64,000 nt of DNA from a phage: the sequence record PX104379.1; one strand, 5' to 3'. Made by a program: the position numbers and the translations under genes. Below are positions 41,711 to 46,645 of the stretch, in pieces; position 1 is the stretch's first letter; every line of letters starts with the position of its first letter. The notes below the pieces were generated by a model. That model had not been told where the DNA came from, ran no database searches, and saw only the letters and a program-made list of their open reading frames with translations.

Positions 41711-43975
41711 TCATAATTTACAGGATGAACAATCTTCAGCTTTTGGAGTTTCTATTTCATAATCATCAGTACCAGAACCATCACGGGTATTATGATAATA
41801 GAAATTTTTTCCGCCAAAATACCAAAAATACAAAAGGTCATCAATCATTATTGACATTGGAACCTTGCCTTTAGGGAAGATTTGGGGGTCATAGTATGTA
41901 TTCGCCGAAGCTGATTGACAAACCCATTTCAGCATAATAGCTACCTGCGTAAGATAAGGTTTATTACCTTTCTTAGCTAATTTCCATGTATAGTCGTAAA
42001 GGTCTATGTTATGCTCAATATTGGGCACGACCTGATTAAAGGAGCCCTCTTTTGATTCTTTAACAGAGACTGGTCCACGTGGAGGCTCGATACCGTTTGT
42101 ACTGTTAGAAACTTGGGAAGATGACTCACATGGCATAAGTGCTGATAATGTACTATTACGGATGCCAAAGAGCTTAAGGTCTTCCCGCAGCGCCGACCAG
42201 TCACAAACGTATTTTGGAGCTGCGATTTGGTCAATCTTTTTATTGTACCAGTCGATAGGTAATTCGCCTCGAGACCAACGAGTGTCTGAATAATATTCGC
42301 AAGGTCCTTTTTCTTTGGCGAGCTTAATGGATGCTTTAATGAGTCCATACTGTAATCTCTCAAATAGTTCATGTGTTAAATCGTTAGCATCTTCATAAGA
42401 AGCAAAGTTACTTGCCAGCCAAGCTGCATAGTTAGTAACACCTACACCAAGGTTTCGACGCTTTTTAGCTTTTTCTGCTTCAGGAACTGGATATCCTTGG
42501 TAATCCAAAAGATTATCAAGAGCACGAACTTGAACTTCTGCCAATTCATTAATTTTATCTTGGTCTTGCCAATCGAAGTTATCCAGCACAAATGCAGATA
42601 ACGTGCACAATCCAATTTCAGCATCGGGGCTATTCACATCATTTGTTGGAATAGCAATTTCACAGCACAAGTTACTCTGACGAATAGGTGCCTTTTCACG
42701 AATAAATGGAGTATAGTTATTCGTATTATCAATGAACTGTACATAAATCCTTGCTGTTCCTGAACGTTCAGTCATGAGCAATTCAAATAGTTCACGGGCT
42801 TTAATACGCTTTTTACGAATATTAGGGTCTTTTTCTGCTGCTTCGTATAATTCACGGAAACGGTCTTGGTCTTTAAAATAAGAATAATAAAGCTCGCCAC
42901 CCATTTCATGCGGACTGAACAAAGTAATGTAGTCGTTCTTTCCAAAACGTTCCATCATCAAATCATTCAGTTGGACGCCATAATCCATATGACGGATACG
43001 GTTTTCTTCTACACCTTTGTTATTTTTCAAAACGAGAAGATTTTCAACTTCCAAATGCCAAATAGGATAATAAGCAGTAGCAGCGCCGCCACGAATTCCA
43101 CCCTGTGAACATGATTTAACTGCAGTCTGAAAATGTTTCCAAAAAGGAATAACACCGGTATGGCGTACTTCACCCATGCCAATCTTAGAACCTTCGGCAC
43201 GAATCATACCAACGTTAATACCAATTCCAGCACGTTTGGAGATATATTCAACAATTGAAGCGGAAGCCTTGTTGATAGACTTTAATGAATCACCTGCCTC
43301 AATAACAACGCATGAACTAAACTGTCTAGTCGGAGTACGACAACCAGCCATAATAGGAGTTGGCAGTGAAATCTGTCGAGTAGATACTGCTTCATAAAAA
43401 CGGATAACATGTTTTAATCTATCAACAGGTTCATCTTGATGCAGTGCCATTCCAATAGCCATAAATGCAAACTGTGGAGTTTCATAAATTTGACCAGTGG
43501 TTTTATCTTTAACTAGATATTTTTCTTTTAATTGCATCGCCCCGGAATAAGTAAATTCCATATCCCGCTCGTGCTTAATTTTTGATTCTAAAAATGTAAT
43601 TTCTTCTGCTGAATATTTTGACAATAATTCAGGGTCATATTTACCTGCATTTACACAATAAGAAATATGGTCAATAAATGAACGCGGTTCATACTGCCCA
43701 TAAACATGCTTACGAAGAGCAAACATTAAACAACGTGCAGCTACATATTGGTAATCAGGCTCTTCAACCGAAATAGAATTCGCAGCGGCCTTAATGACAA
43801 TAGTCTGAATATCATCAGTTGTCATTCCATCACGGAGATAAGATTTAATATTTTCATATAATTCATAAGGATCTACTGATGTTCCCTCAGCTGCCCAAGA
43901 TAAAACTTTAATAATTTTTTGTGGGTCAAAGCTCTGAGAAACACCACTACTTTTGATAACATTAATTAATTGCAT
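41711..43975 (-). CDS. nrdA: Ribonucleotide reductase large subunit
   Basis: 754 aa, class Ia RNR large-subunit features (C-terminal CxxC tail). Confidence 0.95.
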   Translation of the reverse strand: MQLINVIKSSGVSQSFDPQKIIKVLSWAAEGTSVDPYELYENIKSYLRDGMTTDDIQTIVIKAAANSISVEEPDYQYVAARCLMFALRKHVYGQYEPRSFIDHISYCVNAGKYDPELLSKYSAEEITFLESKIKHERDMEFTYSGAMQLKEKYLVKDKTTGQIYETPQFAFMAIGMALHQDEPVDRLKHVIRFYEAVSTRQISLPTPIMAGCRTPTRQFSSCVVIEAGDSLKSINKASASIVEYISKRAGIGINVGMIRAEGSKIGMGEVRHTGVIPFWKHFQTAVKSCSQGGIRGGAATAYYPIWHLEVENLLVLKNNKGVEENRIRHMDYGVQLNDLMMERFGKNDYITLFSPHEMGGELYYSYFKDQDRFRELYEAAEKDPNIRKKRIKARELFELLMTERSGTARIYVQFIDNTNNYTPFIREKAPIRQSNLCCEIAIPTNDVNSPDAEIGLCTLSAFVLDNFDWQDQDKINELAEVQVRALDNLLDYQGYPVPEAEKAKKRRNLGVGVTNYAAWLASNFASYEDANDLTHELFERLQYGLIKASIKLAKEKGPCEYYSDTRWSRGELPIDWYNKKIDQIAAPKYVCDWSALREDLKLFGIRNSTLSALMPCESSSQVSNSTNGIEPPRGPVSVKESKEGSFNQVVPNIEHNIDLYDYTWKLAKKGNKPYLTQVAIMLKWVCQSASANTYYDPQIFPKGKVPMSIMIDDLLYFWYFGGKNFYYHNTRDGSGTDDYEIETPKAEDCSSCKL

Positions 43976-44532: not shown

Positions 44533-45393
44533 TTATACCGCCATCTTTCCTTTAATTGACGGATGAGATACATAGTTGTTAAGAACAAAATTATGCGGCT
44601 TTGCGAATTGACTCAACCAAAATACCTGCGATTCTGTGTCCCATTCATCAAATTCATCTGGAAATTTTAATTGTAATTCGCATAAATCCATAGGTTCACG
44701 ACGCAAAATTTCTTTACATTGTTCTACGTGATTCATATAGATATGAGTATTACCACCAGAAAATATCAAATCTCCCGGAATAAGATTACACATCTTAGCT
44801 ACAATATGAACTAACGTAGCATATGATGCAATATTAAATGGAAGACCGAGGAAAACATCTACCGAACGTTGATACCACTGCAAATCTAAATAGCCATTAC
44901 GCACATTAAACTGATAGAACATATGACAAGGCGGTAATGCCATATATTTAAGTTCAGCTGGATTCCACGCAGAAACAATTTGACGCCTATCATTTGGCAT
45001 TTTTTTAATACGATCAACAACTTCTATAATTTGGTCTACACCGCCAAAATCGCGCCACTGTTTTCCATAAATTGGACCAAGTTCACCACTATGGTATCCT
45101 AAATCTTTTGCCTGATTTTCGTAATTTTCATCCCAAACTGTTTTGCCTTGGATTAACGAATCGTGTTGAATTAATCGTAAATCATTGACATTTGTGCTTC
45201 CCGATAAAAACCATATTAGCTCAGCAATGCATGCATTCCAGGCGAGCTTCTTAGTTGTTACTGCAGGAAAACCTTTGGTTAAATCCCATCGTAATTTAGT
45301 ACCGAACAAAGCAATTGTTCCTGTGCCCGTTCGGTCATCGGTTTCATAGCCATTTTCAAAAATGTCTTTAATTAAATCTTGGTATTGTTTCAT
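44533..45393 (-). CDS. td: Thymidylate synthase, uninterrupted
   Basis: 286-aa continuous ORF MKQYQDLIKDIFENGYE; active-site region PPCH present; no intron. Confidence 0.95.
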   Translation of the reverse strand: MKQYQDLIKDIFENGYETDDRTGTGTIALFGTKLRWDLTKGFPAVTTKKLAWNACIAELIWFLSGSTNVNDLRLIQHDSLIQGKTVWDENYENQAKDLGYHSGELGPIYGKQWRDFGGVDQIIEVVDRIKKMPNDRRQIVSAWNPAELKYMALPPCHMFYQFNVRNGYLDLQWYQRSVDVFLGLPFNIASYATLVHIVAKMCNLIPGDLIFSGGNTHIYMNHVEQCKEILRREPMDLCELQLKFPDEFDEWDTESQVFWLSQFAKPHNFVLNNYVSHPSIKGKMAV

Positions 45394-45438
45394 TTAGTAC
45401 CTTATATAAATTATAATACATTTTATGAAGCTAAATAA

Positions 45439-45798
45439 TCAATACGGTTTAGCATCAAATTTTCTCTCAATTTCAGGTGTGAAATATAATTCTTTACCGC
45501 GTTTGGAAAAGCGACCAATAATATGATAATTATTCTCATCAAACGTGATATTACCAATATCCATAGCTTTCAACCAAATATCGATATTTCTATCCAGCTT
45601 TATGTCAAAATTCCAATACGGAGAACTATTACCGAAAATACTACAAGCGGATTCGGTGAAACAGCTACTATAAATCTTGTCTTTAGGAACTACTAATTGA
45701 TAGACACCTTTAATAAACTGAGGACCTTGCCATTTTGGCTGTTTCGCGTCTTTTTCTAATAGAATAGGGTAATAATTAAAATTCATATTTTCCGCCAT
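45439..45798 (-). CDS. Hypothetical protein, 119 aa, inserted between frd and td
   Basis: ORF starts 8 bp after frd stop and ends 45 bp before td start; no recognisable motif. Confidence 0.6.
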   Translation of the reverse strand: MAENMNFNYYPILLEKDAKQPKWQGPQFIKGVYQLVVPKDKIYSSCFTESACSIFGNSSPYWNFDIKLDRNIDIWLKAMDIGNITFDENNYHIIGRFSKRGKELYFTPEIERKFDAKPY

Positions 45799-45806
45799 GC
45801 GTTATT

Positions 45807-46629
<823 letters not shown>

Positions 46630-46645
<16 letters not shown>

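Follow-up and report, generated by a model that had tools for sequence, protein, structure and literature searches.

A small gene that separates the dihydrofolate reductase gene frd from the thymidylate synthase gene td in a T4-like phage genome is probably not a recent insertion but a conserved gene that T4 has deleted. We analysed a 64,000-nucleotide stretch of sequence record PX104379.1 (hereafter the window), a segment of a Tequatrovirus genome whose nearest relative is vB_EcoM_Ozark (99.3% identity over the locus). A first-pass annotation, made from the sequence alone, had noted a 119-codon ORF between frd and td and had read it as an insertion into a conserved operon. This ORF, which we term gene X, is a bona fide small gene, early or middle, of the frd–td module in enterobacterial T4-like phages. 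T-even phages are annotated with T4 as the reference, yet T4 represents a minority state at frd–td, so that the X borne by T2 and T6 looks like an ‘insertion’ and gets mislabelled.

Gene X and the frd–td interval

The minus-strand genes of the locus follow the order nrdA (41711–43975), nrdA.1, nrdA.2, td, X and frd. The frd gene (45807–46388; 193 aa; Pfam DHFR_1, E=7e-19) ends in ...SVYK-TGA, with the stop codon at 45809–45807 on the minus strand, and its product shares 97% amino acid identity with T4 Frd. Its true start is at 46388 (MIKLVF, T4-like) rather than at 46415, where the longest ORF begins; the mechanical ORF call adds 27 nt ahead of the T4-equivalent ATG, thereby overlapping a preceding 85-aa ORF (46388–46645), and overstates the gene as 202 aa instead of 193 aa. 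Downstream, X (45439–45798) runs from a first ATG at 45798, 8 nt past the frd stop, to 45439, and a 45-nt spacer (45394–45438) separates its stop from the start of the intronless td (44533–45393; 286 aa; Pfam Thymidylat_synt PF00303, E=4e-94). The positions originally given for the end of frd (45807), the ORF (45439–45798) and the td start (45393) all checked out.

T4 (NC_000866) is organized differently: frd lies at 145109–145690 and td ends at 145112, leaving a 4-nt ATGA overlap and no X, as the first-pass annotation had stated. This overlap was reportedly described by Purohit and Mathews (J Biol Chem, 1984). Relative to T4, the window adds X and the 45-nt spacer, with a Shine-Dalgarno sequence of its own for td, while T4 adds a td intron with I-TevI. 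A search of the whole 64-kb window (1–64000) against Rfam returned no family at the gathering score, indicating that no group I intron is present in td or elsewhere in it.

The conserved start of X is probably the second ATG, at 45786, which gives a protein of 115 aa (MNFNYY...); we prefer it because the divergent allele of phage F2 has no counterpart of the first ATG and the short form prevails in database annotations. Comparison of X with the F2 allele gave dS=0.77 and dN=0.037 (dN/dS=0.047), while dN/dS was ~0.1 against metagenomic relatives with 63–66% identity, and the overall range was 0.047–0.13. This substitution pattern argues that X is more than a chance reading frame and points to strong purifying selection; diversification was not evident. 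The earlier description of a same-strand gene packed into the frd–td operon thus holds for a real gene. A search for a paralogue of X elsewhere in the window found none.

Distribution and synteny of the X family

X matched the PHROG 1928 HMM at E=9.5e-36 (residues 8–115 against profile positions 2–125 of 126), a significant full-length match that makes it a member of this family, of which RB32ORF229c, AR1 ar1_242 and phiD1 g240 are examples. NCBI and UniRef already contain the exact 119-aa sequence, deposited many times under the name hypothetical protein. Using tblastn, we found X in 590 phage records, at a single place in each. Identity exceeded 90% in ~363 records, including T2, RB3, RB14, RB18, PP01 and AR1, and diverged homologues with <60% identity were present in ~227 records from other Tevenvirinae genera; T6 also has X. 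Among the matches listed, none was annotated at nrdA–nrdB.

An exhaustive HMM search of 1.84 billion proteins resolved the family into 42 clusters at 50% identity; an indexed homologue search had been too shallow, yielding 3 clusters and then 10. Cluster lengths spanned 37–139 aa (essentially all 95–139 aa) with the exception of P0041, a 928-aa Ig-like repeat protein that reached E=3e-7 through six weak repeats and that we rejected as apparently spurious. Members of the family occur only in phages that infect Enterobacterales, and across genera X evolves faster than td.

The position of X is conserved as well. It lies directly after frd in all 10 non-Tequatrovirus loci examined, which represent Kanagawavirus, Mosugukvirus, Jiaodavirus, Marfavirus, Gelderlandvirus, Moonvirus, Winklervirus and two metagenomic lineages, and homologues in Proteus, Morganella and Providencia phages are annotated adjoining dihydrofolate reductase. 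The X start overlaps the frd stop by 1–23 nt in 10 of 11 loci (the 10 non-Tequatrovirus loci and F2), with the window as the exception.

In most genera, a second ORF of ~115–135 aa, which we call Y, is located between X and td. Y is paralogous to X and carries some 20 extra aa, inserted past the conserved Trp; it matches an X-only profile at E=2e-11 and also falls within PHROG 1928 (E=8e-33 and 2e-25). Marfavirus VAC36 and the metagenomic contig L014 carry, besides X and Y, a 68-aa gene belonging to PHROG 9550 (Z), forming a frd-X-Y-Z-td module in which all junctions overlap. A putative remnant of Y past the X stop was discarded as independent evidence, because the shared ATGCTAAACC falls inside the conserved C-terminus of X (DAKPY).

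We typed the junction in an even sample of 60 of the 515 records that match the T4 junction flanks. Three states emerged: a bare T4-type junction in 6 records, an X-type junction in ~38 and a Z-type junction in ~12, the latter two spanning ~416 bp and 206 bp more than the bare junction, respectively. X is therefore the majority state in Tequatrovirus, found in about two thirds of sequenced genomes, and its presence or absence varies among genomes that are 95–99% identical. In Z-type Tequatrovirus, the frd stop overlaps the Z ATG and the Z stop overlaps the td ATG. RB69 (Mosigvirus) has a bare junction, GTGTATAAATGAAACAATACC, next to an frd that is only 62% identical to that of T4.

Z was located at 724–930 of L011 (phage fHoEco02), 2148–2354 of L006 and 3670–3879 of L014. 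It replaces X in the frd–td gap of ~20% of Tequatrovirus records and shows 79–81% identity in Marfavirus and the metagenomic lineage and 98.5% in Dhakavirus JS98; homologues with 43% identity are found in unrelated Phapecoctavirus myoviruses.

We also considered whether X and the td intron are mutually exclusive and rejected this, as 94 records, T6 and Lutter included, have both. The intron is present in about a quarter of X-bearing relatives; T2 and the window have X and no intron. The 4 bare-junction Tequatrovirus-type phages inspected all have the intron, and RB69 has neither X nor intron. In two bare-junction phages, FL18 (L016, 1478–1645) and F1 (L017, 1477–1644), the endonuclease ORF of the td intron is only 168 bp long and is apparently a decayed I-TevI, while HY03 and T4 keep the full 738-bp ORF.

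Other small conserved ORFs of the T4 nucleotide-metabolism cluster are frd.1 (DUF5417), frd.2 (PF03197), frd.3 (PF05798), nrdA.1 (DUF4326) and nrdA.2. Like X, these are short, same-strand, packed or overlapping, conserved across T4-like genera and dispensable; X differs from them in belonging to no Pfam family, in being absent from T4 and in having a tandem paralogue. X is best regarded as an ordinary, still uncharacterised accessory gene; another conserved small ORF would not surprise a specialist in T4-like genomes. With the exact protein deposited and the family catalogued, the novelty lies in context and not in kind: PHROG 1928 holds two tandem paralogue types (X and Y) and is tied to the frd–td interval, T4 is the exception there, the interval is a three-state cassette site, and the predicted fold has no solved relative. 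Our literature search on the frd–td interval ORF, RB32ORF229c and PHROG 1928 found no paper on the ORF.

Predicted fold and possible role of X

Searches of X and of a 45-member profile against Pfam, NCBIfam, PADLOC and PDB sequences returned no match, leaving PHROG 1928 as the only family hit. AlphaFold2, supplied with 45 homologues, produced a confident model (pLDDT 89.5, pTM 0.83) with strands at 10–16, 31–38, 52–54 and 66–68, a helix at 72–80, a further strand at 84–86 and a long hairpin at 90–100/103–108. A structure search with this model gave no match among solved structures, and BFVD yielded only uncharacterised T4-like phage proteins. The homology searches and structure prediction that the first-pass annotation had proposed thus supplied a family and a fold, and no relative in Pfam or PDB.

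Across the 45-sequence alignment, only W23, G95, K99 and G101 are invariant, and Q20, G31, Y33, F97 and F106 are nearly so. No Asp, Glu, His or Cys stands at an invariant position, and this speaks against X being an enzyme, a metal-dependent nuclease included. Conservation is concentrated in the loop past strand 1 (Q20, W23), strand 2 (G31, Y33) and the terminal hairpin (G95-R-F-x-K-x-G101, F106). Family members mostly have a pI of 8–9.5 and contain ~17% aromatic residues. The fold may be a small, weakly OB-like β-barrel, with the OB-fold nucleic-acid-binding domains of RPA, Teb1, Cdc13, RecO, S1 and PriB as the comparison; were it indeed of OB type, the conserved residues would, as mapped on the model, line its ligand face.

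X is dispensable, given that T4, RB69 and the Z-type phages do without it. We tentatively suggest, as one possibility, that X is a non-catalytic, small β-barrel (weakly OB-like) binding protein that is made in step with DHFR and serves as a dispensable adaptor or modulator. Rather than being a mobile element or an enzyme, it may bind nucleic acid or DHFR/TS and thereby modulate the deoxynucleotide-synthesis and replication machinery of the phage. For instance, it may act as a bridge from the DHFR/TS enzymes, or from their mRNA, to the replication machinery or to nucleic acid. We lean slightly towards such a phage-internal role; inheritance of the family is vertical, at a single locus within one subfamily, and under strong purifying selection. 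Synteny is generally conserved in T4-like genomes, so the adjacency of X to frd in itself says little about function.

An anti-defence or host-takeover function for X, as the first-pass annotation had raised, is rather doubtful; the protein would then be an effector such as an inhibitor or sponge directed against a host immune system. A small, early and dispensable gene would suit such a role, as would its presence/absence polymorphism among 95–99% identical genomes, its restriction to phages of Enterobacterales and its faster evolution than td across genera. Set against this, neither PADLOC nor the solved structures, which include solved anti-defence proteins, provided a match, and selection on X is strongly purifying, with diversification not seen. 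The gene is also fixed at a single locus within one phage subfamily, with just 42 clusters in 1.84 billion proteins. Many genes of the counter-defence type turn up in phages unrelated to one another, and a single-locus, subfamily-restricted and strongly purified pattern is not typical of such horizontally roaming genes. Naturally X-plus (T2, T6) and X-minus (T4) strains are well suited to any later test of PHROG 1928 function.

Probable loss of X from T4 versus gain

The boundaries of the X-containing unit are two copies of a 9-bp direct repeat, TAAATGAAA, on the minus strand. The left copy (45805–45813) includes the frd stop and also contains a vestigial ATG-AAA-TAA that matches the td start; the right copy (45388–45396) includes the td start codon. 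Removing one 417-bp repeat unit from the window recreates the T4 junction, with the same frd 3′ and td 5′ ends and 88 of 89 flanking bases identical. TAAATGAAA is an enriched gene-junction word, present in 9 copies in the window where 3.4 are expected. Being typical of junctions, it lends itself to the exact removal of a gene with translational coupling preserved, and deletion between ATGA-type junction words is a clean mechanism for the loss of a cassette.

Sites of TAAATGAAA include 14984, 16435, 22694, 29534, 45388 and 45805, where a stop or Lys-stop is joined to ATG-AAA. Repeated words of this kind could drive clean gene-sized deletions elsewhere in the genome.

Sequence divergence points in the same direction. 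Between F2 and the window, X and frd have diverged in parallel (88% and 86% nucleotide identity, respectively), and the T4 frd is 96% identical to that of the window; taken together, these values indicate that X predates the frd lineage to which T4 belongs. The F2 frd frame, moreover, still reads into a ...GGKYEF tail that overlaps X and is homologous to the ...GEKREF tail of the metagenomic contig L015. Since X and Z co-occur as X-Y-Z in outgroups, differential deletion from such an arrangement would yield all three Tequatrovirus states. On this evidence, X has quite probably been lost in T4. The proposed insertion into a conserved operon, by comparison, is mostly unsupported, given the majority status of X, the frd-adjacent homologues in other genera and the 417-bp deletion arithmetic. 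The ORF occupies the same position in most T4-like phages, an outcome that had been named in advance as telling against an insertion, although T4 itself lacks it and no function has been assigned.

The longer F2 Frd tail (L013, 2465–3082) stems from an A-run before the frd stop that is 2 nt longer, through which Frd gains 12 residues (KNEIATGGKYEF), creating an 11-nt overlap with the start of X. This tail resembles those of Frd in L014 and L015 (GEKR and GEKREF), and across genera the Frd C-termini extend 1 to 12 residues past the conserved SVY.

An alternative that we regard as unlikely, and which is the reading of the first-pass annotation, is that X is a cassette that Tequatrovirus acquired, or re-acquired, horizontally by illegitimate recombination into an ancestral ATGA junction of the T4/RB69 type. 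The bare junction is also found in RB69, whose frd has only 62% identity to that of T4; the ORF-less state is therefore ancient or has arisen more than once, and the direction of change stays unproven. In addition, X is closer to its L014/L015 counterparts (63–66% amino acid identity) than the neighbouring frd is (just 49%), and the X leader, ATGGCGGAAAAT, looks like the end of frd in that lineage; both observations fit horizontal (re)acquisition. The left border likewise retains the ATGAAA of td followed by sequence resembling a foreign frd tail, and the 9-bp direct repeat stands on both sides of the 417-bp unit.

Other observations speak against acquisition. The 9-bp direct repeat could pass for a target-site duplication, yet it is also a common junction word; the unit has no mobility gene or room for a transposase, and apparently no inverted repeats. 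The sporadic, discordant distribution expected of a mobile element was not seen, as X occupies one place in each of 590 records and is frd-adjacent in the loci examined, although its partial discordance with L014/L015 is to be noted beside this. Acquisition would also require two precise insertions for two different occupants, X and Z, where deletions are simpler given the outgroup X-Y-Z arrangement. Finally, the co-divergence of X and frd between F2 and the window implies that X is older than the frd clade of T4, and the F2 frd frame still enters the ancestral ...GGKYEF tail. Loss from T4 hence remains our preferred reading of the junction.

Homing-endonuclease annotation of X

The seg genes encode GIY-YIG enzymes, the mob genes HNH enzymes, and Hef is an endonuclease of phage U5. 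In public records of BASEL-collection genomes (MZ501050, MZ501052, MZ501113 and others), X is annotated as a ‘putative homing endonuclease’; elsewhere it has been labelled glucose-1-phosphate adenylyltransferase. The BASEL paper states that intron boundaries and associated putative homing endonucleases were identified via comparative genomics. A resemblance does exist: the free-standing homing endonucleases of T-even phages (seg, mob, Hef), like X, vary in presence among close relatives, and both occur in the vicinity of nucleotide-metabolism genes, which such elements target (PMC2988022).

That X is a free-standing homing endonuclease is nevertheless very improbable. Besides the public label, the idea draws on the presence/absence of X relative to T4, its location adjoining td (a classic homing target) and a conserved G-[IV]-Y tripeptide. 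At the domain level, nothing we found backs the label: not one of the 45 sequences of the family had a significant Pfam match (E at most 0.001), and the weak hits included no GIY-YIG or HNH family. In the 45-sequence alignment, G31-[IV]-Y33 is conserved with no YIG after it, and no Arg, Glu, His, Asn or Cys is invariant, so that neither a GIY-YIG nor an HNH motif is present, in agreement with the first-pass annotation. At just 115–119 aa, X is much smaller than these enzymes and lacks both the GIY-YIG α/β fold and a separate DNA-binding domain. Its deep, vertically inherited single-locus synteny, tandem paralogues and dN/dS of ~0.05 differ from homing genes, which are sporadic and decaying.

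Weaker still, the notion that X is a chance ORF or decaying remnant and not a functional gene, which could appeal to its absence from T4, RB69 and the Z-type phages, can practically be set aside, as it is already contradicted by the selection analysis (dN/dS of 0.047 at a dS of 0.77) and sits poorly with the retention of X across many genera at 27–66% identity with invariant motifs and with its confidently predicted fold.

The spacer and the td gene

The spacer between X and td (45394–45438) contains the td Shine-Dalgarno sequence, AAGG, and a weak sigma-70-like element (TTGATT-18-TATTAT), in a region that is not richer in such sites than expected by chance. By eye, a MotA-box-like aGCTTcA is seen at 45432–45426, followed after 12 nt by TAATTT at 45413–45408. 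RNA folding of the spacer gave no significant structure. A promoter is annotated at the equivalent spot in phage Lutter; F2 lacks ~30 nt of the spacer and T4 lacks it entirely. Judging from these sequence features, td may have a promoter of its own only in X-type phages.

The window td is 95–98% identical to the T4 exons except at 44564–44700 (td nucleotides ~700–830), a divergent block of roughly 100–130 nt in which identity falls to 40–70% (window ...MDLCELQLKFPDEFDEWDTESQVFWLSQFAKPHNF versus T4 KELCELVISGLPYKFRYLSTKEQLKYVLKLRPKDF). In AndreasVesalius, frd and X are 98–99% identical to those of the window, and td is just 81% identical at the nucleotide level beyond its first 180 nt. By these comparisons, td is a strong mosaic.
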